From an uncultured delta proteobacterium (GTDB taxonomy: Bacteria > Desulfobacterota > Binatia > Binatales > Binataceae), in assembly GCA_963842085.1 (NCBI GenBank), contig CAWJET010000002.1:832001-896000 (forward strand): a DNA stretch of 64,000 nucleotides. Reading direction: 5' to 3'. Both the position numbers and the translations under genes were made by a program. The notes under the pieces are model-generated. The model did no database searches. It was not told where the DNA came from and was given only the letters and a program-made list of their open reading frames with translations. Of the stretch, positions 13,471 through 48,878 are shown piece by piece; the first letter of the stretch is position 1, and every line of letters begins with the position of its first letter.

Positions 13471-13561
13471 CGTTGCACCGGCTTACCTATCGAGGATTTG
13501 CGGATTCGTTCGGAACGGACCGACCTTAACGATCTTGTCATTCGCGCCGGTGGCGTTGCTA

Positions 13562-13577
13562 TTGGACCAAGGTCCAA
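13562..13577. promoter_or_regulatory. Palindromic regulator box 1 (TTGGACCAAGGTCCAA), between divergent genes
   Basis: ATTGGACC-AA-GGTCCAAT with perfect 8-bp arms; -10-like CAGACT at 13601 (+) and CAAGAT at 13532-13537 (-). Confidence 0.75.
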
Positions 13578-13676
13578 TTTACCGGTATGTAGCAGACGCG
13601 CAGACTGGCCCGTGCGCGTCGCGGCCGGCCCGCGAGCTCGACGCGGAACGCAATACTGCGCGAGGAGGTCGCTTTG

Positions 13677-13832
13677 ATGAGAGTCGCATTTGTAGCGCCA
13701 GCCGTCGCCGCTCCGCTCTGCGGCGCGCTCATGTCGGGATGCGCGCAAACGGTCGAAAGTAAGCCGGCCGTCATGCAGAGAATCACGAGTCGCCTGCTCG
13801 AGCTGCAGGGGCGAGCGCCGGCCGGACAATAG
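13677..13832 (+). CDS. Small putative lipoprotein (51 aa)
   Basis: GAGGAGG RBS at 13662-13668; MRVAFVAPAVAAPLCGALMSGCAQTVESKPAVMQRITSRLLELQGRAPAGQ*; lipobox-like MSGC. Confidence 0.5.
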   Translation: MRVAFVAPAVAAPLCGALMSGCAQTVESKPAVMQRITSRLLELQGRAPAGQ

Positions 13833-13833
13833 G

Positions 13834-14739
13834 GTGAGCGAACCATCGCGCGGCCTCGCTTGTCGTGGCGCCGCGCGCAACCGGCGGCGGGCGATCGCCC
13901 TCAGTGTCGCGCTCTTCACCCTGTTGGCGGGCTGTTCCCTGGGTCTCGCCCAGCAAACCGCGTCAGCCGGCAGCGACGAGGAATCACTGGCGGTTATGGA
14001 AAACGATCCGACCGCGAGCCTGACTCAGCTCAAGATCCAGGACATCTACACGCCGGCCGAGTACGGCACCAATGCTCAGCCGAACACGCTGCAGTTGCGG
14101 CCGCTCTTCGCGGTGCGTCCACAATTGTTCACGCCGCTGGAGCAGCTCATCCGGCCCACGATTCAAGTCGTGACAGTTCCTCGCAACAAGGGCGCGTCAA
14201 CGACCACCGCGCTCGATGACTTCCAACTATTCGACCTGTTCGTGATGCCCTGGCCGAACGAAAAGGAGACTCGCTTCCGGTGGGGGATCGGACCATACTT
14301 CGTATTTCCAACCTCCACGAGTCAATTCACGGGCAAAGGTGCGTGGCAGATGGGGCCGGCCTGGGCTTTCGGCTACCGGGGAATTCCAGGGCTGCAAATT
14401 GCTGGTCTTTTTCAGCAGGCGACGTCGTTCGCGTACACGTCGTCGCATTCGGTTCCGGTAAGCTCGCTCCAGATTCAACCGATCCTCTCGTATCAGCTAG
14501 GTCGCGGATGGTATCTGAAGTCGAGCGACGCGACCTGGAAAATCAATTACCGTCACAAGACTTCGACCGAAATGCCGCTCAGCGCCGGATTTGGGAAAGT
14601 CTGGAAATTCGGCGAGGGCTACGCAATCGACACGTCGTTCTCGGGAGAATGGATGGTCTATCGGCAGTTTGACCCTCAGACCGAGCAATTCACGCTGAGA
14701 TTTCAGGTAAGCCTGCTGTTGCCGCAGGTGCAACTATAA
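13834..14739 (+). CDS. Putative outer-membrane beta-barrel/transporter
   Basis: Signal peptide, NDPTA, WGIGPYFVFPT, GKGAWQMGP, amphipathic C-terminal strands (FTLRFQVSLLLP). Confidence 0.65.
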   Translation: MSEPSRGLACRGAARNRRRAIALSVALFTLLAGCSLGLAQQTASAGSDEESLAVMENDPTASLTQLKIQDIYTPAEYGTNAQPNTLQLRPLFAVRPQLFTPLEQLIRPTIQVVTVPRNKGASTTTALDDFQLFDLFVMPWPNEKETRFRWGIGPYFVFPTSTSQFTGKGAWQMGPAWAFGYRGIPGLQIAGLFQQATSFAYTSSHSVPVSSLQIQPILSYQLGRGWYLKSSDATWKINYRHKTSTEMPLSAGFGKVWKFGEGYAIDTSFSGEWMVYRQFDPQTEQFTLRFQVSLLLPQVQL

Positions 14740-14769
14740 GGTGGGAGCAATTCCGTTCGATGGCACGAC

Positions 14770-14785
14770 TAGGACCAAAGTCCAC
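14770..14785. promoter_or_regulatory. Palindromic regulator box 2 (TAGGACCAAAGTCCAC)
   Basis: GGAC-CAAA-GTCC core upstream of the DUF4410/mla operon; AAGAAT at 14811; a further half-site TAGGACCAAA near 14834. Confidence 0.65.
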
Positions 14786-14885
14786 TTGTAGGAGAACGGC
14801 GTTCCCTGCAAAGAATCGGGGCGACAGGAATCATAGGACCAAAAGAGAGTTAGGAAGTATCAACATCAACCAGTGAGGTACTGTT

Positions 14886-15608
14886 ATGAAGTCACAAATC
14901 CTTAGTCGAATGTACGTGATACTGGCCGTCGCAGCCTTCGGATGCGCGGGCGCACAGGTTACGCAACAGAGTTCCGCGGCGCCGATCTCGACCTCGCCAC
15001 CCACTGCCGTCGTCGTTTATCCATTTGCGGTGGATGCTTCAGATGTCTCGCTGAACTCCAGTATCTTTCAAGTCGCTTACAGAAACATGTCTGGCGAAAA
15101 CCAGACTGACCAACAACTCCAGATCGCCCACCAAACGGCTCAGAATATTTGCGTTCAGGTTGCGGCTAATCTGACGCAAAAGGGCATCACTACCACCTGC
15201 CTGCAGCGTGGTGTGCCTCCCACCGGCAACAACGTCCTCGTCCTGGATGGCGAATTCACCGACATCAGCGAAGGTAACCGGCTACGTCGAATGGTAATCG
15301 GCCTTGGCGCGGGCGCGTCGAAAGTCGATACAGTGGTTCAGGTTATTCAGAAGACGGATCAGGGCTCGACCGAGATAATCGACTTCAGCACCAGCGCCGA
15401 CAGCGGCTATATGCCCGGCGCAGGAATTACCGGACCTGCTGGCGCTGCTGCGGGCGGAGCCGCTGCTGCCGCATCGCTGGGCGTGAACATCGCGGCTGGA
15501 GGCGTCAAGAACGTTACGTCTTCGACCGGCTATCTTGTGGATAAAACTACCGATCAGATCGTCCAGCAGGTAGTCAACTACTACAACCGCCAGGGTTGGA
15601 TGTCCTGA
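14886..15608 (+). CDS. DUF4410-domain lipoprotein
   Basis: Lipobox AFGC; GEFTDISEGNRLRRMVIGLGAGAS motif; Gly/Ala zipper. Confidence 0.75.
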   Translation: MKSQILSRMYVILAVAAFGCAGAQVTQQSSAAPISTSPPTAVVVYPFAVDASDVSLNSSIFQVAYRNMSGENQTDQQLQIAHQTAQNICVQVAANLTQKGITTTCLQRGVPPTGNNVLVLDGEFTDISEGNRLRRMVIGLGAGASKVDTVVQVIQKTDQGSTEIIDFSTSADSGYMPGAGITGPAGAAAGGAAAAASLGVNIAAGGVKNVTSSTGYLVDKTTDQIVQQVVNYYNRQGWMS

Positions 15609-15672
15609 CGCAGCGTTTATTGGCTTGCGGAATGCTATATTCGGTCTATAGGATTCCGCGCTGTACAATTGA

Positions 15673-16824
15673 ATGAGCAACGCCGCCTCTAACATCGAGC
15701 AAGGTACAGTCTCGGTCACCCGGGCAGACGATTCGACCCTGCTGATCAAACTGTCGGGTCCCTGGCATCTGACACGGAACGTTCCCTCGGCTGCGGTTCT
15801 TCGCCAAGAGCTCGAGTCGGCGGCGATGCTCAAAAAGGTTTCGTTCGATACGTCAGGACTGACCAACTGGGACAGCGGCCTGATCGCGTTCCTGGTACAG
15901 ACGAGCGAAGCCTGTCGCGCCCGAGGTATCGACCAGGACCGCCAGGGACTTCCGGAAGGATTGCGGCGCCTGCTCGAACTTGCCGAAGCGGTGCCCGAGA
16001 AGAAGGGAACGCGCAGCGCGACCGTCAAAGCTCCCTTCTTCCAGCGTGTAGGAGAGATGACGCTGGGTTATGGACTCTCGGTAAGCGAGTTCATGAACTT
16101 CCTGGGTCAGCTGGCCGTGGCGTTTGTGAAATTGATTCGCGGGAAGGCCCGTTATCGAAGAGTCGACCTTATAGAAGTTCTCCAGGACTGCGGCGCCAAT
16201 GCGGTCGGGATTGTAACCCTCATCTCGTTCCTGGTAGGTGTGATTCTGGCCTTTATGGGCGCGGTCCAACTCTCCCAGTTTGGCGCGTCGATCTACGTGG
16301 CGGACCTGGTTTGTATCGGGATGACGCGCGATATGGGCGCGATCATGACGGCGATAATCATGTCGGGCCGCACAGGCGCGGCCTTTGCGGCCAAGCTCGG
16401 CACGATGAAGGTGACGCAGGAGATCGACGCTTTAACCACGATGGGCATCTCGCCGATGGAATTCCTGGTATTGCCACGCGTAATCGCCCTGGTTCTGATG
16501 ATGCCGCTGCTCTGCCTGTACGCGGACTTCCTCGGGATACTGGGCGGGTTGTTCGTCGGGGTCGGGATGCTTGGCCTGTCGGCGCGCAGCTACATGCAGG
16601 AAACCATCGCAACGCTGACGTTGACGAACTTGTTCGGCGGTCTGTTCAAGGCGACGTTTTACGGCCTGCTGATAGCGATTGCCGGATGTCTGCGCGGCTT
16701 CCAATGCGGCAACAGCTCTTCGGCGGTTGGCGATGCAGCGACGCAGGCAGTCGTGATGTCGATAGTTATGGGCGTGGTTGCCTGCGGGCTCTTCGCCGTC
16801 GTCTTCAACATCATCGGAATTTGA
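15673..16824 (+). CDS. mlaE: MlaE-family ABC permease with N-terminal STAS-like domain
   Basis: GRTGAAFAAKLGTMKVTQEIDALTTMG, LVLPR, VGDAATQAVV. Confidence 0.9.
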   Translation: MSNAASNIEQGTVSVTRADDSTLLIKLSGPWHLTRNVPSAAVLRQELESAAMLKKVSFDTSGLTNWDSGLIAFLVQTSEACRARGIDQDRQGLPEGLRRLLELAEAVPEKKGTRSATVKAPFFQRVGEMTLGYGLSVSEFMNFLGQLAVAFVKLIRGKARYRRVDLIEVLQDCGANAVGIVTLISFLVGVILAFMGAVQLSQFGASIYVADLVCIGMTRDMGAIMTAIIMSGRTGAAFAAKLGTMKVTQEIDALTTMGISPMEFLVLPRVIALVLMMPLLCLYADFLGILGGLFVGVGMLGLSARSYMQETIATLTLTNLFGGLFKATFYGLLIAIAGCLRGFQCGNSSSAVGDAATQAVVMSIVMGVVACGLFAVVFNIIGI

Positions 16825-16838
16825 TCGCGGAAACGCCA

Positions 16839-17651
16839 ATGGAAAGCGCAAGGGCCAGCAACGGCAAGAAGGCAAACGCAAAGCCGCACATTATCGTGAA
16901 GAATCTCACGATGGCTTATGGCAGCTTCGTCCTTATGCGCGACGTCAATTTCACGGTTCGTCATGGCGACGTCTTCATCATCATGGGCGGCAGCGGATGC
17001 GGCAAAAGCACGCTGCTGCGTCATCTTATAGGACTCAAGGAGCCAGCCACTGGCGAGATCATTTACGGCGACGTTAACTTCACCCGGGCCGATCCGGAGA
17101 CGCGCGAACTAATGCTGCGGCGATTTGGAATCCTGTACCAAAGTGGCGCGCTCTGGAGTTCTATGACACTCGCGCAGAATGTAGGCCTGCCGCTCGGCGA
17201 ATTTACCGACCTGACGCCGTCGCAAATCCGCGAGATCGCGGCGCTTAAACTGGCGCTGGTTGGACTCAACGGATTCGAGGACTTCTATCCAAATGAGATC
17301 AGCGGCGGGATGCAGAAGCGGGCCGGATTGGCGCGGGCGATGGCGCTCGATCCGGAGATCCTGTTCTTCGACGAGCCGTCGGCGGGTCTCGATCCCATCA
17401 GTTCGAGCCTGCTCGACGAGCTGATACTCGAGCTGCGCGACAGCCTTGGTGCGACGATCGTGATCGTTACGCATGAACTCGCCAGTATCTTCGCGATAGG
17501 CAACAACTGCGTCTTCCTCGACGCCGAGTCGCGGGTCCAGATCGCAAGCGGTGATCCCAAGGACCTGCTGGCAAGTTCCCAGGATCCACGGGTGCGCAAG
17601 TTTCTCACCCGCGGCAAAGAGGGAGGCGAAACAGCGAGTCATCATGAGTAA
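16839..17651 (+). CDS. mlaF: MlaF-like ABC ATP-binding protein
   Basis: Walker A GGSGCGKS, signature ISGGMQKR, FFDEPSAGLDP, VTHE. Confidence 0.92.
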   Translation: MESARASNGKKANAKPHIIVKNLTMAYGSFVLMRDVNFTVRHGDVFIIMGGSGCGKSTLLRHLIGLKEPATGEIIYGDVNFTRADPETRELMLRRFGILYQSGALWSSMTLAQNVGLPLGEFTDLTPSQIREIAALKLALVGLNGFEDFYPNEISGGMQKRAGLARAMALDPEILFFDEPSAGLDPISSSLLDELILELRDSLGATIVIVTHELASIFAIGNNCVFLDAESRVQIASGDPKDLLASSQDPRVRKFLTRGKEGGETASHHE

Positions 17652-18624
17652 ACGAATAAGTCCAACCGCCATAGGGATGTTCGTCGTCGGAGGCTTCGCA
17701 CTGGTAATCGCGGCGATTGTAGTTGTCGGTTCAGGGAGCCTGTTCAAGAAGCCGCAACGCTTCGTCTGCATGTTCCAGGGGGACGTCAACGGCCTGAAGG
17801 TCGGGGCACCAGTCAAGTTCAAGGGCGTTCAAATCGGAACGGTCGAAGAAATAGAGATCAACCTATCGCCCGGCGAAGGCGAACTCCGCCCTGATATCAA
17901 GGAATTACGTCTGCCGGTGGTAATCGGCATCGATCGCTCAATGCTCATCCAACGCGGAGGTAGTGGCGAAGCGCTCACCACCCAGGGATTCGATGCGGCT
18001 ATCGCGCGTGGCATGCGCGCGCAACTCAACGTGGAAAGCTTCCTGACCGGACTCCTTTATGTCGATATCGATCTTCATCCTAATGCACCGCTCAATCTTG
18101 CACTGATACCAGGCAGTGGCAGCCTACGGGAGATACCCACTGTGCCGACCACGATGGAGGCAATTCAGAAGCAAGCGGCAGAGGCACTAGCCAAGCTCGA
18201 TAAGATCGATTTCAACGCCCTGGTCGCTTCGATCACAAGCGCCGCCAATTCCATCAACCAGCTAACTAGTTCACCCGACCTGAAGGCCACGCTCGCTTCG
18301 CTCAAGCAGACCGTGCCGAATCTCGACCGGACGATCACCTCCTTAAGAGTCGCTTTGGACAACGCCAACGAACGCATTACGCCGCTGACGGCAAGCCTCC
18401 AGAAGAACTCGGATGAGGCAAACGCCACGATGAAGGATACGCGCGAGGCGTTGCTCGAGGTGAGATCCAGTCTCGATCCCGACTCGCCGTTGTGGGTGAA
18501 CCTGAACACGGCGCTCGATCAATTGGCCGACACCACCCGCTCAATCGGAGAGCTTACGGACTTTTTGCAGAGAAATCCCGCTGCGCTCCTACGCGGAAAG
18601 TATGTGCCTGAGAAGGACCGATGA
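17644..18624 (+). CDS. mlaD: MlaD/MCE family protein with long helical C-terminus
   Basis: N-terminal TM; GLKVGAPVKFKGVQIGTV MCE motif; LQRNPAALLRGK. Confidence 0.9.
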   Translation: MSKRISPTAIGMFVVGGFALVIAAIVVVGSGSLFKKPQRFVCMFQGDVNGLKVGAPVKFKGVQIGTVEEIEINLSPGEGELRPDIKELRLPVVIGIDRSMLIQRGGSGEALTTQGFDAAIARGMRAQLNVESFLTGLLYVDIDLHPNAPLNLALIPGSGSLREIPTVPTTMEAIQKQAAEALAKLDKIDFNALVASITSAANSINQLTSSPDLKATLASLKQTVPNLDRTITSLRVALDNANERITPLTASLQKNSDEANATMKDTREALLEVRSSLDPDSPLWVNLNTALDQLADTTRSIGELTDFLQRNPAALLRGKYVPEKDR

Positions 18625-19307
18625 GAAATACGAATGTTGCAGCCGCGTTGATCGCATTGGGCGCGTGTGTGTTGGCGGCGGGATGCTCGCCTCTGGCGCC
18701 GCAACCCGACCGCTCGAAGTTCTTTATCCTGACGCCACTCGCCGACTCTTCAGGAGCTGCAGCACCGGCGGGCTCGTTCGCCAATTCTCCTCTGACCATC
18801 GGCGTCGGCCCTATCGATTTTCCCGACTACCTGCGGCGCCTGGAAGTAGTAACCCGGGCTTCGCCCAATCAGCTCGATCTTTCCGCGGAGAAGCGCTGGG
18901 GCGAGCCGCTCGACAAAAACTTCGCGCGTGTCTTTTCTGAAAATATATGCGAACTGCTCAACACCCAACAGATCGAAAAATATCCCTGGCCGGTCAGGAC
19001 CCACGTTGACTATCAAATCGCGATCGACGTCCAGCGCTTCGAAACGACCTCCGATGGACAGTCGGAATTGATCGCACGATGGATCATCAAGGACGGTGCT
19101 ACCGGCAAGGACTTGTACGCGTCCGAAACCAGGGCGAGCGCGCCCGTGGGTCCCGGTGAAACGGGCGCGTCGGCGGCGCTCAGCACTGACCTGGGCACGC
19201 TCAGCCGCGAAATTGCCGCGCGCGTGACTGAACTCCGCCAGCATCAAACTCCCATGAGCACGACTGAGAATCTCAATGTTGGCCATCATTCACAAGAGAG
19301 AGGGTGA
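18621..19307 (+). CDS. PqiC/ABC_trans_aux family lipoprotein
   Basis: Lipobox AAGC; VGPIDFPDYL, RWGEPL, IDVQRFE. Confidence 0.85.
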   Translation: MRNTNVAAALIALGACVLAAGCSPLAPQPDRSKFFILTPLADSSGAAAPAGSFANSPLTIGVGPIDFPDYLRRLEVVTRASPNQLDLSAEKRWGEPLDKNFARVFSENICELLNTQQIEKYPWPVRTHVDYQIAIDVQRFETTSDGQSELIARWIIKDGATGKDLYASETRASAPVGPGETGASAALSTDLGTLSREIAARVTELRQHQTPMSTTENLNVGHHSQERG

Positions 19308-19310
19308 GTT

Positions 19311-19832
19311 ATGGAAAGGAAATCCAGCACGGAGTTTGACCTTAGGAAGCATGCTCCTATCTTCCTTGGTCTCTTAGGCGCTCTGCTTATGGATACTACC
19401 GCGCGCGCTCAGGAGCTATACATCTATCCGTCCAAGGGGCAAAGCCAGGCGCAGCAGGACAAGGATCGTTACGAGTGCCATACGTGGGCTGTAAAGCAGA
19501 CTGGTTTTGACCCGAGCAGGCCTGCACCGCCACCATCGAATTCTTCTGCGTCAAATCAGTATCAGCCCTCACAGCCCCACGTTCTCAAGGGCGCCGCCCG
19601 AGGTGCTGCCCTAGGCGCGGTCGGCGGCGCAATAGCCGGCGATGCGGGCAAGGGAGCAGGTGCGGGTGCCGCGATGGGAGGCCTGGCAGGTGGATTTCGC
19701 CGGCGCGACGAAAGAATACAGCAATCTAAGTCACAGCAAGCAGACACTCACGCTGCTGCCTCTAATCAACGGAATTCGTACAACCGGGCTATGGCAGCCT
19801 GTCTGCAGGGGCGTGGCTACACCGTAAACTAG
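19311..19832 (+). CDS. Secreted glycine-zipper protein
   Basis: YIYPSKGQSQAQQDKDRYECHTWA, GAARGAALGAVGGAIAG, ACLQGRGYTV. Confidence 0.75.
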   Translation: MERKSSTEFDLRKHAPIFLGLLGALLMDTTARAQELYIYPSKGQSQAQQDKDRYECHTWAVKQTGFDPSRPAPPPSNSSASNQYQPSQPHVLKGAARGAALGAVGGAIAGDAGKGAGAGAAMGGLAGGFRRRDERIQQSKSQQADTHAAASNQRNSYNRAMAACLQGRGYTVN

Positions 19833-23458: not shown

Positions 23459-24214
23459 CTACTTTCCCATTTGAGCAACGGCGTTGTGCAGTGGAACACT
23501 GGAAATTTGAATCAGCCCCGCGAACGGGCGGTCGAGCTCGAGGATCATGAAGATCGCGCCGGAAACGGAAAGGGCGCACAGGAAAAGGGTGAAGATTACG
23601 GTCGCATTCGGCGGCGCGAAAAGTCCGAAGCTAAGGAAGATAATAGTCACCCAGAAGATCAGCAGCACGAGAAACGGCATCGGGATCGAGTGGCCGCCCT
23701 GCTCGAACAGCAGCCAGCGCGTCTGTCCAATGTCGATACTCATCTTTACGGCCTGGGCCTGGAGCGAGCGTTGAACTTCGTTCTGCGGCGAGAGTTCCTG
23801 TATCTTATCATAGAAGGCTTCGGCCGCAGTCGCGGTCGGCGCCGTCTCCGCGTTTCCCGAACGGTTTTCGGACCAAATCAGATCGATCATTCCGGCGGCG
23901 GAACGGCGGAGCAGAGCGCGAGCTTCTTTCGTCTCCGGCCCGTAATGTTCGAGTACGCGATCGAGCAGGATGATGTTAGCCGAGAGCTGAGTAATTTCAT
24001 TTCTTTGCGTGTCGTAAGAACCCTTTGCCGAGTTGATCAGAAGCGCGAGAACCAGGGCCGACATCGTTGCGGTTAGAGCCATGCCAAGCTTGATTACATC
24101 CTTGGAATCCGGACTCAGATGATGCTCGGGCAGAATCCGGTGAAGGGCCATCCCGAGAAGCGCGCCGCCAAAAACACACGACAGCACGATCCAACCGACG
24201 TCGATTGGGCTCAC
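23459..24214 (-). CDS. DUF4239/bestrophin-like membrane protein
   Basis: LPEHHLSPDSKDVIKLGM, ALVLALLINSAK, ILELDRPFAGLIQISS. Confidence 0.7.
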   Translation of the reverse strand: MSPIDVGWIVLSCVFGGALLGMALHRILPEHHLSPDSKDVIKLGMALTATMSALVLALLINSAKGSYDTQRNEITQLSANIILLDRVLEHYGPETKEARALLRRSAAGMIDLIWSENRSGNAETAPTATAAEAFYDKIQELSPQNEVQRSLQAQAVKMSIDIGQTRWLLFEQGGHSIPMPFLVLLIFWVTIIFLSFGLFAPPNATVIFTLFLCALSVSGAIFMILELDRPFAGLIQISSVPLHNAVAQMGK

Positions 24215-24484
24215 GAGTAGTTCCTCCGAACCGCGGTTTCCTGAACGGGCCGCTGGACCTTTAGAAGTGATCGATCCACAGAGCTACCGTGCCAGGGATC
24301 GCCAGAAATTGGGATACAGCAAGGCGAATCCGAACGTGATCGCGTATCTCGGAACCGGCCCTTCGCCCGACACCTTCCGGACGGGCTCGGCGAAGCAGTT
24401 AACCATTGGCAGCCTGCGCGACACACGCTCGCATACTGGCGCCTAAGAATAAAGCCAGCATCGGGGCTATTGCACGACCACTCA

Positions 24485-25267
24485 TTAACCCGAGGCATCG
24501 GAACGGCGGGACTTATCTGCTGCATGCGTATCTGCAGATTGGCTCATCTGCATCCCCACCAGTCGGGCGACCAGGATCGCGAGATAGAACTGTCCGGTGA
24601 TACCTTCCGCCACCGCCGCGTAGCGGGCCTGGAGAGTTAAAGGGGTGATGTCGCCAAAGCCGATAGTAGAGAGCGTGGTGAGGCTGAAATAGATAAGAAC
24701 CGGGATAACTTGTTGTTCGGAAAGGGGTCCTACCGTACCGAAGCTGAAGGCATTGGGTTGCAGGTCGTGAAGGACGATGTAGAACAGCCCGCAGGTCAAG
24801 CCGAGCAGCAGATAGGTCGAAATTGACATGCTGATTACTTCCCTCGTAACCTCCTTCTGCTTCAATACGGCGCGCAATTCATTCCAGGTAATGTAGACAA
24901 AGAGCAGCAGCCAGAGAATCGAACCGGCCAGGTAGATCGAACGGCTAGGTGTAAAGAGAACGACCAACCGTTCCGCGATTGCGGGGATTCCCAGTGTCCA
25001 GGCAATAATGCTCCTCCGCCTCCGCTGGGCCAGGAGCACTTCCCGCTCGCCCACCAGTTCATCGACGTCGATGTTGTACAGGGCCAGCAGCAGCAGCACC
25101 AAGATCGCGCTGCTGAACATGATCGGGCCGGCTCCCGAATCGCCGACCAAAGGCCGCACCAGGAACGCGGCTATGAGCGCGACAAGCAACGCGGTATGCC
25201 TGTGCGGCGCCAGACGAAGGTGGAGTTCGTCTCGCAGTTGGCCGAGAAGACTAGTCTCAATTGACAT
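24485..25267 (-). CDS. Potassium channel family protein (Ion_trans_2)
   Basis: YFSLTTLSTIGFGDITP pore/filter; EGITGQFYLAILVARLVG. Confidence 0.88.
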   Translation of the reverse strand: MSIETSLLGQLRDELHLRLAPHRHTALLVALIAAFLVRPLVGDSGAGPIMFSSAILVLLLLALYNIDVDELVGEREVLLAQRRRRSIIAWTLGIPAIAERLVVLFTPSRSIYLAGSILWLLLFVYITWNELRAVLKQKEVTREVISMSISTYLLLGLTCGLFYIVLHDLQPNAFSFGTVGPLSEQQVIPVLIYFSLTTLSTIGFGDITPLTLQARYAAVAEGITGQFYLAILVARLVGMQMSQSADTHAADKSRRSDASG

Positions 25268-41201: not shown

Positions 41202-41217
41202 ATGTACTAAGGTACAG
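41202..41217. promoter_or_regulatory. Palindromic regulator box 4 (ATGTACTAAGGTACAG)
   Basis: TGTAC-TAAG-GTACA, followed by TATCTCTGC as in box 3; GAAATT at 41241; upstream of the second K-channel gene. Confidence 0.7.
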
Positions 41218-41358
41218 TATCTCTGCTTAAAGAGATGAGGGAAATTGTGAACGAGTCTTTGAAGAAAATGCCGGCCAGGGCGTAGTGGTCTTCTATGGCA
41301 TCGCAGAGCCCGTTCGCGTGCCGATGATCGGTCCTCCACGCCAGCCGTAGGCAATTCA

Positions 41359-42108
41359 TTGGAAAAACTGGGCGCAGCGATCCACCGACGTTTCGCACCG
41401 CATCGACACAGCGCCCTGCTCGGGGCGCTCATAGCTGCGTTCGCGGTGCGCCCACTGATCGGAGACACTGGAGCGGGTTTCCTCGTATTCGGCATTGCAT
41501 TGGTGGTCGTGTTACTGGTGGCCCTCTACAACATCAACGTCGATGAGTTGGTGGGTGAAAGAGGACGCCTGCTGGCCCAAGGCAGGCGGCGACGAATTTT
41601 GGGTTGGGTGCTCGCCTCGGCAGCCGGAGCAGAACGAATAGCAACCATCTTTGTGCAGACCCCGATGCTCAACCTGGCAGGCACTATCTGCTGGCTGTTA
41701 TTCGTAGCGTTTGTCACGGTCAGCGAGTTGCGCAGCGTTCTGAAGCAACGAGAGGTCACCGGGGAAACCATTTGCATGGCAGTTTCCGTCTACCTCTTGC
41801 TCGGTTTTTCCTGGGCTCTTCTGTACGCAATTATATTCGAGCGGCATCCGGAGTCCTTTGCCGGCATCGTGACCGCAAACCCCAGCCAGCCGACCGGGTT
41901 TCAACACTTTTTCCCGATTCTCGGCTACTTCAGCCTGACTACGCTGTCCACTATCGGCTTTGGCGACATTACGCCGCTGACTCTTCAAGCACGCTACGCA
42001 GCAGTCGCCGAAGGCATAACCGGTCAATTCTATCTGGCGATTCTGGTCGCGCGGCTGGTCGGACTGCAGATGACTAAATCAGCGAGTCAACGCGCGGAAA
42101 AACCATGA
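41359..42108 (+). CDS. Potassium channel family protein (paralog of 24485..25267)
   Basis: YFSLTTLSTIGFGDITPLTLQARYAAVAEGITGQFYLAILVARLVG, identical to the paralog. Confidence 0.88.
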   Translation: MEKLGAAIHRRFAPHRHSALLGALIAAFAVRPLIGDTGAGFLVFGIALVVVLLVALYNINVDELVGERGRLLAQGRRRRILGWVLASAAGAERIATIFVQTPMLNLAGTICWLLFVAFVTVSELRSVLKQREVTGETICMAVSVYLLLGFSWALLYAIIFERHPESFAGIVTANPSQPTGFQHFFPILGYFSLTTLSTIGFGDITPLTLQARYAAVAEGITGQFYLAILVARLVGLQMTKSASQRAEKP

Positions 42109-42184: not shown

Positions 42185-43273
42185 TCAGACTGGCGTGTTA
42201 TTCTCTGGGCTTACAGCCACAGACGCGGTCCACTGCTCTAAAAGGCTGTAGCCCAATGCTACCAGCGTCGGCCCAAGGAACATCCCGATAACACCGAACG
42301 CGAGTGCTCCACCGAGCACTCCTAGCATCACGAGAATCATCGGCGTCGAGCCGCCATGGCTGATGAGCAACGGCTTCACGACATTGTCCAGCATTCCGAC
42401 CATCACTCCCCATGTCATGATAAACACCGCCCACGCGGTCGAGCCTTGTCGATACAGCCAGAACGCAGCCGGCGCCGCGACGAGCGGCGGTCCGCCCGGG
42501 AGAAATGACAGCACAAAGGTGATGAACCCCAGGGACACGGAGCCAGGGACTCCGGCGACAGCGAAGCCAATCGCTGCGACCACGCCCTGGAGAAGCGCGG
42601 TTCCCAGAACGCCGTAAACGACCGCCCGAATCGTCGCACCCGCCAGAGCGAGAAGACGATCGCCTCTCTCCCCGGCGAGCCGATGAAGCGCGCCCTGGAG
42701 TTGATCGGCTGCGGCATGTCCATCGCGATAGAAAAAGAACGCGATCAGCAGGCTCAAAGCGATCTGGAAGCTACCCTCGGCCAGCCTGCTTCCGCCCCAC
42801 AAGACGACCGTCTTCGCCGCGGGCAGCAGCCTGGCCAATTCCCGGATTCTCACCGAACTGCTCTCGTTCAGGTAGTTCCAGTAGTCGGCGATATGGCTGC
42901 CGACCAGCGGGACGCTCGCGACCCAATCGGGCGGACTCGGCGGACCCTCCTGGATCAGTTTCTGGCTCGCCGAGATCAGCGCCGATACGTTGTCGGCCAG
43001 CGTAGCTCCCAGGATCGCAACCGGCACAACTATGATCGCGGCCAGGAACAGCGTGGCAAGCAACGCCGACAGTGTCCGTCGTCCGCCAAGCATCTTTTCA
43101 AGCCTGAGAAACAGCGGCCAGGTCGTGAAACAGAGAATCACGGCCCATAGCGCCGCGGATATAAATGGACGCAGGACCAGCAGGCATAAGAGTCCCAGCA
43201 TCACCACAGCCGTGCCGCCAATCCACAGCTCGACCTGGCTTCGCCCCGCGCGCTCGACCGGAGTATCAGCCAT
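42185..43273 (-). CDS. AI-2E family transporter
   Basis: PFISAALWA, FFFYRDG, DNVVKPLL, GVLGGALAFG, GMFLGP. Confidence 0.9.
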   Translation of the reverse strand: MADTPVERAGRSQVELWIGGTAVVMLGLLCLLVLRPFISAALWAVILCFTTWPLFLRLEKMLGGRRTLSALLATLFLAAIIVVPVAILGATLADNVSALISASQKLIQEGPPSPPDWVASVPLVGSHIADYWNYLNESSSVRIRELARLLPAAKTVVLWGGSRLAEGSFQIALSLLIAFFFYRDGHAAADQLQGALHRLAGERGDRLLALAGATIRAVVYGVLGTALLQGVVAAIGFAVAGVPGSVSLGFITFVLSFLPGGPPLVAAPAAFWLYRQGSTAWAVFIMTWGVMVGMLDNVVKPLLISHGGSTPMILVMLGVLGGALAFGVIGMFLGPTLVALGYSLLEQWTASVAVSPENNTPV

Positions 43274-45707
43274 GTGAACGCTCGCGTAGCTCTTGCAGCA
43301 TCTGGCGGACTTGCGGATTGTTCGGCTCGAGCTCGTCGAGGCGCTGCGCATAGATCAGCGCTTTGGCGGGCTCGCCGGACTGTTCCAGGAAGTTCACCAG
43401 CGCCGCCAGCGAGTCGCGGTCGTAAGGATGCACTTTGATGGACCTCTCCAGCGTCTCGATGGCGGCGCCAGTCTTGCCCGCGTCGTTCAACGCGACCGCA
43501 TACACGTAAACATAACGGGCATTGCCCGGATCGCTGCGCGCGGCGGCGCCGAGCAGCTCGAGCCCTTGCGCGCCGCGCTTCTGACGCACCATCAGCAGAC
43601 CGAGCGCATGCTCGAGCGACGCGTCGTCTGGCGAGCGCCTGATGGCGTCCTCGAGGACGCGTTCGCCCTCTTCGTCCCGGTTCTGTCCGCGATAAAGGTC
43701 CGCCAGGTTGACGGCCGCGGGCGCGAAACTCGAGTCGAGCGACAATGCGGTCTTGAGTTCCGCCTCAGCCTGGTCGAAGTGTTTCTCCCGGGCGTACAGC
43801 AATCCCAGATTCATATGCGCCTCGGGACGGTCCGCGTCCAATTCCTGCGCGCTGACGTACTCGTCGGTAGCGCGACTGAAGGCAGCGGCAACATCTGGGG
43901 GCAGTTCGTCCGCGGGCAACCCAACCAGCACTTCTGCCGCCTCGATCCGCGCGGCGCGGACAGGATCGCCCAGGAGCGGCGCCAGAATGGTTGCGCTGGC
44001 GGCTGGATCGGAGTTTGACATGGCGCGGGCGGCAGCGCGTCTCACCAGCGTCGAATCGTCGGCGACTCCGGCGCGAACCGCCGCATCAGTCGGAGGCGGA
44101 GCGTAGGCAGCGAGCATCGAGAGCGCAGTGGCGCGAGCGATTGCAGGCTGCTGACGGTCCGCGACCAATCGTTCGAGCGATTGAGCCGCGCCAGGTGCAC
44201 CGGCCGCTCCGCCATCCAGCGTCTCAGCGAATCGCTGAAACCCCTCAGGTGTGCGCCCGTACCACTTGTTCACGGCATCCAACGCCCACTGGGCCGACTT
44301 GTCCGTGTGGCAATTCGTGCACGCGTTGGGAGTGCCCAGCTTCACGGATAGATCGGGCCTCGGGATCCGGATGCTGTGGTCGCGACGCGGATCGACGACC
44401 ATGTATGTGCGCGTTGGCATGTGACACTCGACGCATCGCGCGCCCGCCGATCCCACTTTGTGGAAATGATGCCGCGGCGAATCGTACTTACCCGCCGAAT
44501 GGCACTGCATACAAACATCGTTGCCCTCGGCCCGAAGCCTGGAACTGTGTGGCTCGTGACAATCGCTGCAAGTCACACCTGCATGAAACATCCGGCTCTG
44601 GATGAAGGAGCCGTATTCGTAGTCCTCCGCCTTTATCTGCCCATCCGGGTAATAGAGGTCTTCATCCAGCAGCGCAACTCGATAATCGTCGCCCACCGGC
44701 TGGCCATGCACGCAGTCTTCGTGAATCTCGCCGCGCCGCGCGTGGCATCGCGCGCACATCTGGATCTCCCGCTCGGTGAGTCGCGGCGCGCTGCGACGCA
44801 CGTTGCCGCTGGCAGGGTCGATCGCCCAGGCGACGCCTTTCCGCTCGTCAAGCGCGATCGTCAAGCCTTCGTTGTCAAAGTTCTTCCCATCGCCCTGCTT
44901 ATTCGCCCACGCCACGTGATTGGAGCCGGGACCGTGGCAAGCTTCGCACGCAACATTAATCTCGGCATAGGCGGTGGCGAAGGTACGCGTCCGCAGGTCG
45001 TAGTTCTTGCGCACGTTGGTCGAATGGCAATCGGCACACATGTAGTTCCAGTTCTGATCGATGCCGGTCCAATGCCTCGAGTCCCGCGCCGCGATCTTCT
45101 GGCCCGGATAGAGAAAGAACCATCGCTGGCCGCCGCGTTCGCGTGGCCGGGTGTCCCAGGCGATGCCGAATGCCTGCAGGCGTCCGCCGGGCATCGCGAT
45201 GAGATACTGCTGCAGCGGATACACGCCGAACGTGTATTCGATTTCGTAGTCATGAAGCGCGCCGTCGGGACCGTCGGTGCGGACCATGAACTTCGAGCCA
45301 TTGCGAAAGAAACTCGACGTGACGCCATTGTTGTCGAAACCCGCGTGGTTGAAATCGCCCAGGACCGTGGAAACTGCTGCCGTTTGCATGGCCAGTTGAT
45401 GATGCGAGCCGCGCCAGAGGACGGCTTCGCGCTCGTGACAGGTCGCGCACTGCGCGGCGCCGACGAATTTCGCGCCGACCAACGGGGATGTCGTCATTGG
45501 AACCACGGCACGCGCCGTTTCGCGGTTCCGTAGCGCCAGGAGGACTAAGGCAATCACGGACAGGGCAAGTATCGGCAGCAGCCAGGCAAAAGATGTGAGC
45601 CCGCGACGCGACTTTGGCAACGCCGCGGACGGCTGCGCTCGCGCCACGGTCCTTTCGGTTCCAGCAGTGTTAGCCCGCTTGTTCCGGTCCTTTTTCTTCC
45701 TGCTCAA
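43266..45707 (-). CDS. Membrane-anchored octaheme c-type cytochrome with HEAT and TPR repeats
   Basis: Eight CxxCH motifs: CATCH, CADCH, CEACH, CARCH, CSDCH, CMQCH, CVECH, CTNCH; N-terminal TM; C-terminal TPRs. Confidence 0.9.
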   Translation of the reverse strand: MSRKKKDRNKRANTAGTERTVARAQPSAALPKSRRGLTSFAWLLPILALSVIALVLLALRNRETARAVVPMTTSPLVGAKFVGAAQCATCHEREAVLWRGSHHQLAMQTAAVSTVLGDFNHAGFDNNGVTSSFFRNGSKFMVRTDGPDGALHDYEIEYTFGVYPLQQYLIAMPGGRLQAFGIAWDTRPRERGGQRWFFLYPGQKIAARDSRHWTGIDQNWNYMCADCHSTNVRKNYDLRTRTFATAYAEINVACEACHGPGSNHVAWANKQGDGKNFDNEGLTIALDERKGVAWAIDPASGNVRRSAPRLTEREIQMCARCHARRGEIHEDCVHGQPVGDDYRVALLDEDLYYPDGQIKAEDYEYGSFIQSRMFHAGVTCSDCHEPHSSRLRAEGNDVCMQCHSAGKYDSPRHHFHKVGSAGARCVECHMPTRTYMVVDPRRDHSIRIPRPDLSVKLGTPNACTNCHTDKSAQWALDAVNKWYGRTPEGFQRFAETLDGGAAGAPGAAQSLERLVADRQQPAIARATALSMLAAYAPPPTDAAVRAGVADDSTLVRRAAARAMSNSDPAASATILAPLLGDPVRAARIEAAEVLVGLPADELPPDVAAAFSRATDEYVSAQELDADRPEAHMNLGLLYAREKHFDQAEAELKTALSLDSSFAPAAVNLADLYRGQNRDEEGERVLEDAIRRSPDDASLEHALGLLMVRQKRGAQGLELLGAAARSDPGNARYVYVYAVALNDAGKTGAAIETLERSIKVHPYDRDSLAALVNFLEQSGEPAKALIYAQRLDELEPNNPQVRQMLQELRERSHG

Positions 45708-45802
45708 CGATCAACTCTTGAAAAACGAGCCTCGGGCGCCTCTGGCCGGGCGCTTCGTGACGAACAAGCTTACGATCTGCTTGGAACCAGGTTCATGTCA
45801 TA

Positions 45803-45818
45803 TGCGACCAAAGTCCAA
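45803..45818. promoter_or_regulatory. Palindromic regulator box 5 (TGCGACCAAAGTCCAA), between divergent genes
   Basis: GAC-CAAA-GTCCAAT; TACTAT at 45843; weaker copy GGAACCAGGTTC near 45783. Confidence 0.65.
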
Positions 45819-45886
45819 TTGCCCGACTCCCTCTGCGGTTCGTACTATTCCCCCAAGTGTCGCGGCGAAAAGATCGGGAGGGAAGA

Positions 45887-46579
45887 ATGGTGCCGACTGC
45901 CAAGATCAGCGTTGGACCTCAAAATGGCACCGCGAAGGAAGCCCTGAATATCAAACCAGATGCGACAATCGGACGCATCAGGGTCGCAATAATCGAAGAT
46001 GACGAGCGCGTGCGGCACGCACTCGCCTTTCAGCTCAGCACGGCCGGCTTCGAGGTCGCTGCTTACTCTTCCGCGGAAGAACTTCTCGACGAGGTTGATG
46101 CGAAGGATTGCGATTGCATCGTGGCCGACATTTACCTGCCGAGAATGAACGGGCTTCAGCTTCAGGAGGAACTCAGTCGCACCGTTCCTTACGCGTCGAT
46201 AGTTTTCATCACCGGTCATGGCGATCTTTCACTCGGAATGCAGGCGATGAGGAAAGGCGCCGTGGATTTCCTCGAAAAGCCGGTTGACGATCAAGCTCTG
46301 CTGAGCTCGATAGCGCGCGGCGCCCATCTTTCGCGCCGACTGCGCGCCGAACAATTGCAGCGGATCGAACTTGAAGAACTCCAGCGCTCGCTGACCCCCC
46401 GCGAACGCGAAGTCTTCGGCCTGATAACCACCGGTTTGCTCAACAAGCAAGTCGCCAGCGAATTGGGAACAACCGAACGGACCGTCAAAGCTCATCGCGC
46501 AAGTGTGATGAGCAAAATGGGCGCCGGCTCACTCGCCGACCTGGTGCGCATGTCTGGCATCCTCCACATTCACGCCTAA
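45887..46579 (+). CDS. FixJ/StyR/TodT-family response regulator
   Basis: IIEDD, ADIYLP, TGHGD, GAVDFLEKP, LTPREREV, GLLNKQVASELGTTERTVKAHR. Confidence 0.93.
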   Translation: MVPTAKISVGPQNGTAKEALNIKPDATIGRIRVAIIEDDERVRHALAFQLSTAGFEVAAYSSAEELLDEVDAKDCDCIVADIYLPRMNGLQLQEELSRTVPYASIVFITGHGDLSLGMQAMRKGAVDFLEKPVDDQALLSSIARGAHLSRRLRAEQLQRIELEELQRSLTPREREVFGLITTGLLNKQVASELGTTERTVKAHRASVMSKMGAGSLADLVRMSGILHIHA

Positions 46580-46653
46580 GTAAAATGACGGATTTGGCGC
46601 ACCTCGCCGTTCTCGCCGTGCCTCTGAGCACTTCGCGCAATTGACGGTCAGCG

Positions 46654-48000
46654 CTATGCGCGCCTCAATGCTCTGACTCGATTTCTTTCGGCAACCGGGA
46701 GTGTGAAGCTGAACGTCGCGCCGCGGTCGGGATTCGGCGTCGCCCAGATTCTGCCGCCGTGACTCTCTACTATCGATCGGGTCACGAGCAGACCCAGTCC
46801 CATGCCGTCGCTCTTGGTCGTAATAAATGGCTCGAACAGCCGGTTCGCGACGGCAGGGTCAATCCCTCCACCGCTGTCGCATACGCTCAGGGCGACCCAT
46901 CCGGTCTTCTCGGGGGCGACCTTGATGGTTACGTCGCGGCGGTCAGACTTGGCCTCGGCGATCGCGTCGAAGGCGTTCATGACCAGATTCAGCACGCACT
47001 GCTGCAACTGGATAGCGTCGCCGATGACGCGCTGCCCCGATGGCGAAACCTCGATCTGCACCGAGATCTTCCGGACTGCGGCCTCTCCGGCAACCAGCTT
47101 CACTACTTCGCCGACCATCGCGCCGATCGCGATTGCGGTTTTGTGCTCCACGTGGTTCTTGAACATGAAGCGAATCCGCCGAACGAGCTCAGCCGTTCGT
47201 TTGGTGTCTTCAATCGCACTCTTGACCGCCTCCAAGGCCATGGCGGGCTCTGGATTTCCCCGGGACAGCAGCCGCGCGACACCTCCGAGGTTGCTCAAAA
47301 TCGCGCCGAGCGGCTGGTTGATTTCGTGCGAAAGCGAGGCCACCAGTTCGCTCATCAGGTTGCGGCGCGTGGCCGTCCTGAGTTCAGCGCGAGCCGCTTG
47401 GATTGTCACTACTGACTGCTTGCGCTCGATCGCGCTTCCAAAGAGTCGTACCGCGAGGGCCAGGCGATCGAGCAGCTCGGGCGGCCATTGCCGGGCCGAA
47501 CGGAACTTGCCGAAACTCGCTGCTCCAATGACTCGGCCGCCAGCCCACATCGGGATCACCGCCGACGCCTTGGGCCCATACCGTTCTACAAAACGCCTTG
47601 CATCCTCCAGTTCAGCCGGAATTTCACTTGGCCGCGAGAACGTAATCGGATTGCCGGCCATGACCCATTCGATGGTGGCCTGGAAGACCTTCTCCGGATC
47701 GTAGCTCCGCGGAAAGGGCGGGAAATCCGCTCGACGCCAGGTATGTGTCGTACGCACGGGCCCGCCAGGCTCATCACGCTCGTAGATTCCGCTTCTATCG
47801 AGATCCAGCGCATGACAGATCTTGCCCAGCCAGGATTCGATTTCGCGGTCGACTGCGTCAGCCGGCACGCGCGCCATCGCCGCCGATAGTTCGCCCACCA
47901 GTGATTCGAAGCGCTGAACCTCTTTCCGTTCGCGGCCGACGCGCGCGGTCCTGCCAGGTTTCGGCTCGATAGTGGCAGTGGTCGCTCGTCGTTGCATCAA
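46654..48000 (-). CDS. Soluble GAF-domain sensor histidine kinase (paralog of 11601..12854)
   Basis: SHEINQPL, NLVMNAFDA, DSGGG, FITTK, GMGLGL; no TM helix seen. Confidence 0.92.
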   Translation of the reverse strand: MMQRRATTATIEPKPGRTARVGRERKEVQRFESLVGELSAAMARVPADAVDREIESWLGKICHALDLDRSGIYERDEPGGPVRTTHTWRRADFPPFPRSYDPEKVFQATIEWVMAGNPITFSRPSEIPAELEDARRFVERYGPKASAVIPMWAGGRVIGAASFGKFRSARQWPPELLDRLALAVRLFGSAIERKQSVVTIQAARAELRTATRRNLMSELVASLSHEINQPLGAILSNLGGVARLLSRGNPEPAMALEAVKSAIEDTKRTAELVRRIRFMFKNHVEHKTAIAIGAMVGEVVKLVAGEAAVRKISVQIEVSPSGQRVIGDAIQLQQCVLNLVMNAFDAIAEAKSDRRDVTIKVAPEKTGWVALSVCDSGGGIDPAVANRLFEPFITTKSDGMGLGLLVTRSIVESHGGRIWATPNPDRGATFSFTLPVAERNRVRALRRA

Positions 48001-48199
48001 GGTAGAGTGGCGTCGGGGTCAAATACCGGGGCTGGAGGAGCGGTACCCGGAATGCGGGACGAAATCTGATCCCTTCGCTGCGCACCTTAACAAGAATAGA
48101 AAGTTGCATCAAAGGGGATCGTCGCGAACAAACAGATGGCAGCAAACTGGATCGTCGCGAAGATTTAACGAAAGAATCGCGGGAGCGCCTTGACAGCGC

Positions 48200-48592
48200 C
48201 TAGTGAGGCGAATTTACGGGGGTCCGCAACGCCTTGCGAATCGCTCGTAGCAAGTCTTTTTCATCGAAAGGCTTCAGCAAGCTCGCAATCGGGTGCGCCT
48301 CGCGCATCATTTTCCTGGTCTGCGGATCGTCGCGGCCGCTTATCAAGATCGTCGGCAGGCACCGTCCTGACGCAGTCATTTCCCGGCATAGTTCAAAGCC
48401 GGTCATTCCCGGCATGTAAACGTCCAGCAGCAGGCACGCGCTGCCAGTCGGGACCTCGCTCGTCAGGAATTCCTCCGCGTTCTGAAAGTCCAAAACGTCG
48501 AATCCCAAAATCCGCAGTTGCCTTCGCAGCGCCCCACGGATGGACGCGTCGTCATCTACCACAATCACTGTCGCCGCCGATTTGTTTCCCAA
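48200..48592 (-). CDS. Stand-alone response regulator receiver domain
   Basis: VVDDD, LDVYMPGMTG, ISG, LLKPF. Confidence 0.88.
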   Translation of the reverse strand: MGNKSAATVIVVDDDASIRGALRRQLRILGFDVLDFQNAEEFLTSEVPTGSACLLLDVYMPGMTGFELCREMTASGRCLPTILISGRDDPQTRKMMREAHPIASLLKPFDEKDLLRAIRKALRTPVNSPH

Positions 48593-48684
48593 CTGACAAT
48601 ACCAAGTCCGCGGAAGAATAGTCGGCCATCATCCGCGTCGTTTCCTGCCACAACATTGTGAATCGTGCGGAGACCACTGCGCTA

Positions 48685-48700
48685 TTGTACCAAAGTACAA
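48685..48700. promoter_or_regulatory. Palindromic regulator box 6 (TTGTACCAAAGTACAA), between divergent genes
   Basis: Identical 24-mer to box 3; GAATCT at 48724 (+) and CACAAT at 48655-48660 (-). Confidence 0.8.
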
Positions 48701-48878
48701 TATCGCTCCCCGGAAAAATCGACGAATCTTTCGCGAGAACTCGCGAGATAAAAGCGCCGACTCGTCATCGCGGGCATCGAGTTGTTCGGACACGCTGGAG
48801 CCTGGTGCCGATAGCCGGAAACAGCGGTGCGCGCGATTCAAGAAGCAGCATCGAGAAGAAGCAACTCGAGGAGAAAAA

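Follow-up and report, generated by a model that had tools for sequence, protein, structure and literature searches.

Two box flavours and their predicted FixJ-type regulators in a region of a Binataceae genome

We analysed a stretch of 64,000 nucleotides (G000:C2:832001-896000, hereafter the window) from an uncultured member of the Binataceae, whose genome consists of two contigs (C1 and C2) of 4.93 Mb in total with 61% G+C. The subject of the analysis is a set of 16-bp palindromic boxes in this stretch. The window holds two predicted regulons, one with GGAC boxes (13562 and 14770) and one with GTAC boxes (36624, 41202, and 48685), plus a hybrid box at 45803. An earlier note on this DNA had treated the six boxes as one regulon; this assignment was given up, because the GGAC boxes pair with the regulator at 10897-11580 and the GTAC boxes with that at 45887-46579. 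As a whole, we consider it quite probable that dimers of FixJ-type response regulators would occupy the boxes, that each flavour would be read by its own regulator, and that the bound dimers would act as activators of the class-II type.

Sequence and distribution of the boxes

The six 16-mers listed in the earlier note were all found in the window sequence with exact matches. W1 and W2 below denote the two two-component systems of the window.

13562..13577: GGAC-type box TTGGACCAAGGTCCAA, matrix score 34.8, between the W1 receiver-kinase-regulator operon (-) and the gene for a 301-amino-acid (aa) protein (+)
14770..14785: GGAC-type box TAGGACCAAAGTCCAC, matrix score 23.8, before the DUF4410/Mla-like operon; a gene is faced on the right only
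36624..36639: GTAC-type box TTGTACCAAAGTACAA, matrix score 32.9, between the u105/DUF2092/sulfatase/Pqi operon (-) and a Crp/Fnr gene (+)
41202..41217: GTAC-type box ATGTACTAAGGTACAG, matrix score 22.8, before an ion-channel gene; a gene is faced on the right only
45803..45818: hybrid box TGCGACCAAAGTCCAA, matrix score 24.5, between the TPR/multihaem gene (-) and the W2 regulator gene (+)
48685..48700: GTAC-type box TTGTACCAAAGTACAA, matrix score 32.9, between the W2 receiver-kinase operon (-) and the u454-sulfatase-OmpA-u253-FadL-u294 operon (+)

Five of the six boxes match the pattern GKACYAARGTMC, against an average of 0.03 matches, and one at most, in 100 dinucleotide-preserving shuffles; the whole genome has 22 such sites. 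The sixth box, 45803 (TGCGAC..GTCCAA), has a degenerate left arm. The gene context agreed with the description of the boxes as intergenic, four of them between divergent genes (13562, 36624, 45803, and 48685); same-strand genes flank 14770 and 41202. The 24-mer GCTATTGTACCAAAGTACAATATC, already known to be identical at 36624 and 48685, was found in a third copy at C2:28798.

Subsequently, the 4.93-Mb genome was scanned with a position matrix trained on 23 sites, a check that had been proposed beforehand. The scan gave 28 sites with a score above 21, followed by a clear gap in the scores. All 28 were intergenic or within the first codons of over-long calls of open reading frames (ORFs), and they were confined to four clusters, namely C1 1.213-1.248 Mb, C1 3.029-3.043 Mb, C2:28798, and the window. 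Twenty-two of the strong sites lie outside the window, and inside it the six listed boxes were the only ones above a score of 12. All strong sites are inverted repeats of 6-4-6 geometry, extendable to 7-2-7, with the general form TTG-N-AC YWWR GT-N-CAA; the GTAC and GGAC boxes differ by only one base per arm. The arms indeed co-vary as had been claimed (GGAC..GTCC versus GTAC..GTAC), since 23 sites on the site list are G/G, four are T/T, and one is mixed.

The fourth GTAC box, at C2:28798 (position 8798 of locus L006), is flanked on one side by a sulfatase-family gene (535 aa, L006 7133-8740, -) and on the other by a lipoprotein gene (L006 8884-9630, +; DUF3313-like by eye), followed by a gene for a P-type cation ATPase (9537-12185). 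Hexamers of the kind described below were present on both of its flanks, GAATCT at 24 and CAGAAT at 25. On C1, we observed arrays of two to three overlapping boxes at an exact phasing of 15 bp (...GTCCAATGGAC...; 1213185-1213234, 1233864-1233913, 3037043-3037092, 1247465-1247499, and 3042538-3042572), which would put successive dimers on opposite faces of the helix; the window has no such 15-bp-phased array. Isolated weaker matches outside the four clusters were G000:C1:547925 (20.4), a mixed GGAC/ATAC box inside a long intergenic gap, and G000:C2:661651 (17.0). An Rfam scan of the window found no RNA family at the boxes, and its only match was the tRNA gene at 55859-55930.

Regulators, recognition helices, and box flavour

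Pfam searches and ORF inspection revealed at each box cluster an operon for a single-domain receiver, a kinase with GAF, HisKA, and HATPase domains, and a regulator with REC and GerE domains. The genome encodes exactly four paralogues of this regulator, two in the window and two on C1. Hence, the earlier proposal of two local regulators was right in so far as W1 and W2 appear to pair with the boxes and too narrow in scope, since the system extends over the genome with 22 more strong sites and two more paralogues on C1. The genes of the two systems in the window are as follows.

10897..11580, -: W1 FixJ-type response regulator (REC and GerE helix-turn-helix, HTH), recognition helix GEKTIKVQRARVM, K/V class
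11601..12854, -: W1 histidine kinase (GAF, HisKA, HATPase_c)
13039..13470, -: W1 single-domain receiver gene with a frame shift near 13150, pseudogene or assembly error
45887..46579, +: W2 FixJ-type response regulator, helix TERTVKAHRASVM, R/A class; likely start ATG at 45887 behind GGGAGG
46654..48000, -: W2 histidine kinase (GAF, HisKA, HATPase_c), kinase core most FixL-like
48200..48592, -: W2 single-domain receiver

The three W1 genes are all on the minus strand, and in W2 the regulator gene (+) is convergent to the receiver and kinase genes (-). When the W1 receiver region was searched by tblastn with the C1b paralogue, two segments of 60% and 85% identity were obtained in frames -3 and -2; the frame change reflects either a pseudogene or a homopolymer error of long-read assembly. 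The nearest solved structures of the regulator were StyR (1yio, 7e-43) and FixJ (5xso, 2e-36).

The distribution of boxes and regulators was compared in 61 genomes, including 36 of the same genus and 24 others of the class. The strict 16-mer TTGKACYWWRGTMCAA was found in 22 of the 36 and in two of the 24, and the reversed pattern used as a control was found in none of the 61. A FixJ-type regulator (E<=1e-45) was detected in 21 of the same-genus genomes. All 21 contained the box, and the box was not found in 14 of the 15 regulator-negative genomes; the exception with a box and no regulator was G035, a genome of 81% completeness. In the genus, the regulator gene is mostly flanked by a box on each side. 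The genomes compared are kin, and this co-occurrence is to be read as a pattern, not as a statistic. When eight regulator loci at a greater distance were searched for perfect 7-2-7 palindromes, nothing recognisable came up.

Furthermore, the flavour of the boxes tracks the recognition helix. The regulators of W1 and of the two C1 systems carry the helix GEKTIKV(H/Q)RARVM and lie among GGAC boxes, and W2 with TERTVKAHRASVM lies among GTAC boxes. We tabulated 51 regulators that fit the helix pattern, drawn from four loci of this genome and about 110 foreign ones (L109 and L112, apparently the same DNA as L007 and L008, were excluded). The box arms lying up to 5 kb from each regulator were counted and grouped by their position-5 base; the template presupposes TTG-N-AC, and other box types are invisible to it. 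The K/V helix (13 loci) was accompanied by 50 arms with G, three with T, and one with C, and the R/A helix (15 loci) by 43 arms with T and 13 with G, the latter tracing to the conserved hybrid site. For the K/Q helix (E-K-T-T-K-Q, six loci) all eight arms had G, with the flanks TC..GA rather than TT..AA. The Q/V helix (six loci) gave A 12, C 7, G 3, and T 2, and the R/T helix (one locus) gave T 3 and G 1. Thus GGAC is the partner of E-K-T-x-K-V, GTAC that of E-R-T-x-K-A, and GAAC or GCAC that of E-Q-T-x-K-V; the loci are related, and the counts are not independent.

A third flavour was seen beside E-Q-T-I-K-V regulators, with TTGAAC or TTGCAC boxes that look less strict at position 5 (L010 8902-8947; L092 7666-7852; L093 7980; L098 1698-2771). 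The E-K-T-T-K-Q regulators were accompanied by TCGGAC-YWWR-GTCCGA boxes (L090 10285; L099 4290; L100 7678 and 7805; L101 19517; L102 11632); these boxes depart from the others at the outer position 7, where T is replaced by C, and not at position 5.

These pairings suggest that the residue three before the invariant helix Lys, together with the residue just after this Lys, may set the position-5 base of the half-site. The assignments may be K for G, R plus A for T, Q for A or C, and V, as in StyR, for A. We put forward tentatively the wider idea that the FixJ/EL222/StyR branch has a readable recognition code, by which duplication and one or two helix changes could yield separately addressable envelope regulons with identical promoter architecture, and that the hybrid site could provide graded cross-talk or autoregulation.

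A box of the matching flavour stands before the receiver-kinase(-regulator) operon in the window (13562 and 48685) and in both C1 clusters, and the same placement was observed in other lineages (L011, L012, L014, L093, L094, L098, and L100). An orthologue of the 48685 box was present in all 11 genus loci in which the regulator was located.

Promoter layout and rival explanations

Next to the boxes, an nAnnnT hexamer recurs at a fixed distance. Among the 56 flanks of the 28 strong sites, the hexamer starts 24 nt from the box edge in 16 and 25 nt in 15, against a background of 3.0 per offset; at offsets of 23-26 it was found in 36 flanks versus 4 to 18 in nine control offset windows. In the window, it occurs at 24-26 nt in all ten gene-facing flanks and in neither of the two non-facing flanks (left of 14770 and left of 41202). 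The following hexamers were located.

13532..13537, -: -10-like hexamer CAAGAT, 25 nt from the 13562 box
13601..13606, +: -10-like hexamer CAGACT, 24 nt from the 13562 box
14811..14816, +: -10-like hexamer AAGAAT, 26 nt from the 14770 box
36594..36599, -: -10-like hexamer CAGAAT, 25 nt from the 36624 box; (C/T)AGAAT in all eight orthologous DUF2092 promoters
36663..36668, +: -10-like hexamer AAATCT, 24 nt from the 36624 box
41241..41246, +: -10-like hexamer GAAATT, 24 nt from the 41202 box
45772..45777, -: weak -10-like hexamer GATCGT, 26 nt from the hybrid box, on the side of the TPR/multihaem gene
45843..45848, +: -10-like hexamer TACTAT, 25 nt from the hybrid box, before the W2 regulator gene
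48655..48660, -: -10-like hexamer CACAAT, 25 nt from the 48685 box, conserved in orthologues
48724..48729, +: -10-like hexamer GAATCT, 24 nt from the 48685 box; nAnnCT conserved in orthologues

The earlier note had reported such a hexamer in nine of ten directions at 23-25 nt, with the left side of 45803 as the exception. Its presence and regular spacing were borne out; the exception was not, as GATCGT, although weak, is found there at 26. Conservation at orthologous promoters, another check proposed beforehand, was also observed. In 12 aligned loci of the 48685 region, including that of the window, the 19-20-bp box is invariant and the hexamers are conserved on both sides, with a CA-N-AAT-like hexamer towards the receiver gene and nAnnCT towards u454, and the downstream leaders are variable and rich in indels.

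If the hexamer is a -10 element, the box would reach from about -51 to -36 and be centred on -43.5 or -44.5. The sequences at the -35 position are poor (TATCTC, TAGCCG, at best TTG-NNN). A scan for the sigma-70 consensus around the six boxes found none at any box; elsewhere it found two matches in 13.2 kb (4.1 expected) and none in 2.2 kb. The lack of a consensus sigma-70 promoter at the boxes is as expected for activator-dependent promoters, and the layout is predicted to be that of an activator-dependent promoter of the class-II type.

Taken together, these findings suggest the following mechanism. A dimer of the phosphorylated FixJ-type regulator (REC plus a GerE/LuxR HTH) would occupy each 16-bp box. 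The regulator is encoded near the boxes, alongside genes for a single-domain receiver and a cytoplasmic histidine kinase with a GAF domain, and this genome has four such systems. Regulators with E-K-T-I-K-V would read GGAC..GTCC, W1 at 13562 and 14770, and the E-R-T-V-K-A regulator W2 would read GTAC..GTAC at 36624, 41202, 48685, and C2:28798. Class-II activators such as LuxR-type proteins sit near -43.5. The box would lie against a weak -35 region, its centre being placed at about -43.5 to -44.5 relative to the presumed start, and because of this position the dimer would act as a class-II-type activator. Since the box is symmetric, one promoter could be served per side at divergent regions; the four divergent sites would each have two promoters with starts about 90 bp apart. 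Each system behind its own box would mean autoregulation. The targets would be envelope genes, namely those for Mla/Pqi-type lipid transport, OmpA- and FadL-like proteins, lipoproteins, sulfatase-family proteins, and ion channels, and in this genome a Crp/Fnr regulator. The claim of box binding, autoregulation, and control of promoters on both sides by the local FixJ/StyR-type regulators is therefore upheld at the level of prediction by the co-occurrence, the helix covariation, the boxes before the operons, and the flanking hexamers.

The same regulators might instead use the boxes as repressor operators, with occupancy by the -35 region blocking RNA polymerase. The box directly abuts the -35 position, the partial -35 element TTG follows several GGAC boxes, and the 15-bp-phased arrays on C1 could coat a promoter. 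However, no box-linked promoter reaches the sigma-70 consensus, their -35 regions are poor, the box overlaps neither the -10 hexamer nor the spacer, and its centre near -43.5 is the position of a class-II activator. The closest relatives, StyR, TodT, and TdiR, are described as activators in the excerpt of PMC5874301. We consider repression unlikely. It is hardly credible, in our judgement, that FixJ-type regulators read the GGAC boxes alone and leave the GTAC boxes to the local Crp/Fnr protein (36685-37386). The earlier note had named this protein as a candidate binder; its gene is directly beside the GTAC box 36624, and the palindromes bound by Crp/Fnr proteins have spacers of 4 to 6 bp. Only one of the 36 genus genomes, however, gave an orthologue (E<=1e-30), whereas GTAC boxes occur in at least 19 of them, and with this distribution it cannot be the general binder. 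Furthermore, GTAC boxes stand at every R/A-class locus examined in the genus, they are identical to GGAC boxes save one base per arm, and no Crp/Fnr gene was present among the ORFs scanned in the GGAC clusters. Hence, the candidate was dropped, and the comparison supports the local FixJ-type regulator as the putative binder, with the Crp/Fnr gene as a predicted target here.

In another arrangement, a GGAC-reading paralogue would activate the gene of the GTAC regulator through the hybrid box 45803, so that the GTAC regulon would lie downstream. The right arm of this box is a perfect GGAC-type half-site, GTCCAA, and the box is kept before the R/A-class regulator gene as TG-N-GAC CAAA GTCCAA in eight of 12 orthologous loci. 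Yet it was not detected in the other four, the arm reads GTACAA in one orthologue (L116), and seven of the eight loci belong to genomes in which the R/A-class regulator was the sole family member found (E<=1e-45). The conservation of the hybrid site where only the R/A regulator was found argues against a simple cascade from the GGAC to the GTAC class, and the idea that GGAC-class paralogues simply control the gene of the W2 regulator is weakened; we regard such a hierarchy as very unlikely.

Several observations also weigh against the explanation by flavour-specific FixJ-type activators. The same hybrid GTCCAA site before the R/A-class regulator, which occurs also in genomes with that regulator as the sole member found, suggests tolerance of a G half-site by the R/A regulator and a less than strict insulation of the flavours, and mixed boxes occur in G004 and at C1:1233879. 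No box was seen within 5 kb of 13 of the 51 tabulated regulators. Genome-wide, the hexamer was found in 27 of 38 gene-facing versus nine of 18 non-facing flanks, a noisy comparison made with a crude gene caller that missed genes faced by at least two of the "non-facing" flanks, and in orthologues nAnnnT was present on two of three non-facing right flanks. Kin genomes and paralogous clusters make the counts overstate independence. Finally, Lys179 of DosR, a mycobacterial regulator compared below, is presumably the counterpart of the K/R/Q position, an equivalence that we take from the i, i+3, i+4 spacing and the DosR helix rather than from an alignment.

Predicted targets and comparison with known systems

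The genes next to the boxes genome-wide are envelope genes. They encode DUF4410/DUF3313 lipoproteins, Mla- and Pqi-type transporters, DUF2092 proteins, OmpA- and FadL-like proteins, sulfatase-family and DUF3300/DUF2950 proteins, and ion channels, as well as one Crp/Fnr regulator and a TPR/multihaem protein. The predicted targets in the window are listed below.

13834..19832, +: GGAC-regulon targets, namely a 301-aa protein, a DUF4410 lipoprotein, MlaE/ABC ATPase/MlaD/auxiliary lipoprotein, and a Gly-zipper protein; presumed extent of the transcription unit from gene order
23459..36493, -: GTAC-regulon target string, namely u105, DUF2092, u274, 853-aa sulfatase-family, u169, two PqiA, PqiB-like, auxiliary lipoprotein, DUF3300, DUF2950, ion channel, and bestrophin-like
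36685..37386, +: gene for a Crp/Fnr-family regulator, immediately after the 36624 box; predicted target and not binder
41359..42108, +: gene for an ion channel (Ion_trans_2), preceded by the 41202 box
42185..45707, -: TPR/multihaem cytochrome protein of 813 aa and a transporter of the AI-2E family; the box they face is 45803
48879..55854, +: u454, 575-aa sulfatase-family, OmpA-like, u253, FadL/TodX-like, and u294; together the conserved operon to the right of the 48685 box

In relatives, conservation of the string 23459..36493 next to the box is limited to its promoter-proximal part. The order conserved in the genus is the DUF2092 operon, GTAC box, (u342, AI-2E), TPR/multihaem gene, hybrid box, regulator, kinase, receiver, GTAC box, u454, sulfatase, (OmpA), u253, FadL/u301, and u294. 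What this genome adds to the layout is the Crp/Fnr gene and the second ion-channel unit. The products u301 (13834-14739), u454 (48879-50243), u253 (52709-53470), u294 (54970-55854), and u342 (38572-39600) have no Pfam or NCBIfam family and recur beside boxes in other genomes. Between the two box-controlled regions lies a gene for a MocR-type fusion of a GntR HTH and an aminotransferase (19861-21336, -), adjoined by thioesterase, glutathione S-transferase (GST), and hydrolase genes, none of them with a box. The tRNA gene (55859-55930, -; Rfam 63 bits) directly follows the last gene of the right-hand operon of 48685. Eight sequencing runs among those listed hold this DNA, all of soil metagenome DNA and from two studies; none is RNA.

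In the literature, no bacterial context was found for the box 12-mers among the matches listed, whose titles point to eukaryotic, primer, or other unrelated subjects, and among those listed for Binatota, Binatia, or Binatus none was on regulation, likewise judged by title. What is new here is the GTAC flavour, with each flavour assigned to its own putative paralogue, the covariation of helix and base, which extends to the Q/V and K/Q classes and to published data on EL222 and StyR, and the exclusion of the Crp/Fnr protein as the binder. The finding is real and well supported by comparison, and the predicted mechanism is conventional, a response regulator at a palindrome beside the -35 region being textbook. 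It offers a testable regulatory map for a phylum without a cultured member, with four paralogous two-component systems and about 28 promoters of envelope, lipid-transport, and channel genes. The helix-box covariation also provides a natural experiment on the shift of specificity of a LuxR-type HTH after duplication.

The closest published operator is that of EL222, a LOV-HTH protein of Erythrobacter litoralis, which binds the 12-bp RGNCYWWRGNCY according to the excerpt of PMC10521638. The GGAC boxes (GGACYWWRGTCC) fit this consensus at 12 of 12 positions, whereas the GTAC boxes fail at positions 2 and 11, one per arm; the GGAC flavour alone belongs to this class. The HTH regions align with E of about 4e-12, and the EL222 helix SEKTVKMHRG shares the E-K-T-x-K frame of the GGAC-class regulators, with K at the first variable position, the residue that goes with G here. 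In contrast, EL222 has a LOV input and the present regulators have a phosphorylated receiver fed by a GAF kinase, and the GTAC-class regulator has R and A at the two helix positions. EL222 is widely used as an optogenetic regulator, and its helix and box are of the class found here; routes to orthogonal versions are therefore suggested by the variants with R/A and Q/V.

StyR, TodT, and TmoT of Pseudomonas aromatic catabolism share the 6-4-6 inverted repeat and the AC-N4-GT core and are activators there; the StyR box is ATAAAC-N4-GTTTAT, with Lys175, Val176, and His179 as putative contact residues (excerpt of PMC5874301). Val176 aligns with the V/A helix position of the regulators here. However, the outer arm bases are ATAA there and TTGG or TTGT here, a V of the StyR helix stands against K, R, or Q in the present regulators, and all four regulators of this genome carry Ala in place of His179, although the K/V class keeps K and V. 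The kinases are unrelated, and catabolism genes there contrast with envelope genes here. The boxes are thus not members of the StyR/TodT class, as the arm ATAAAC is absent and AC-N4-GT alone is shared.

The DosR (DevR) regulon of Mycobacterium tuberculosis has the consensus TTSGGGACTWWAGTCCCSAA, with sites common to divergent units, and shares with the boxes here the GGAC-N4-GTCC core with its WW centre as well as GAF-domain kinases that feed a LuxR-type regulator (excerpt of PMC2275270). DosR Lys179, Lys182, and Asn183 contact bases (excerpt of PMC4082495); the spacing of Lys179 and Asn183 is that of the variable helix positions here, and Lys182 would be the invariant one. The HTH match is, however, weak (1zlk, 5.5e-06), the DosR kinases are tandem-GAF haem proteins whereas those here have one GAF and a HisKA (PF00512) core most like FixL and gave no sign of haem, for which no binding test was made, and the regulon content is unlike. 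The present systems are therefore not members of the DosR/DevR family.

With FixL-FixJ, the likeness is in the proteins. NCBIfam ranked FixJ first for the regulator and for the single-domain receiver and FixL first for the kinase, the last through the kinase core only. Caulobacter FixT is a parallel for the single-domain receiver, and the Crp/Fnr gene directly behind a box here recalls fixK behind FixJ. The scores were nevertheless far under the curated cut-offs (181.6 versus 255 bits for the regulator and 172.6 versus 850 bits for the kinase), the sensor region is a GAF domain instead of a haem-PAS domain, and the Crp/Fnr target is present in one of the 36 genus members, in place of a conserved FixK-type target. 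The systems are not members of the FixL-FixJ oxygen-sensing type on these three grounds. The boxes do share features of a NarL/FixJ-class operator, namely a symmetric repeat of about 16-20 bp, a sequence that follows the recognition helix, and a putative cognate REC and GerE regulator that is encoded nearby and co-occurs with it.

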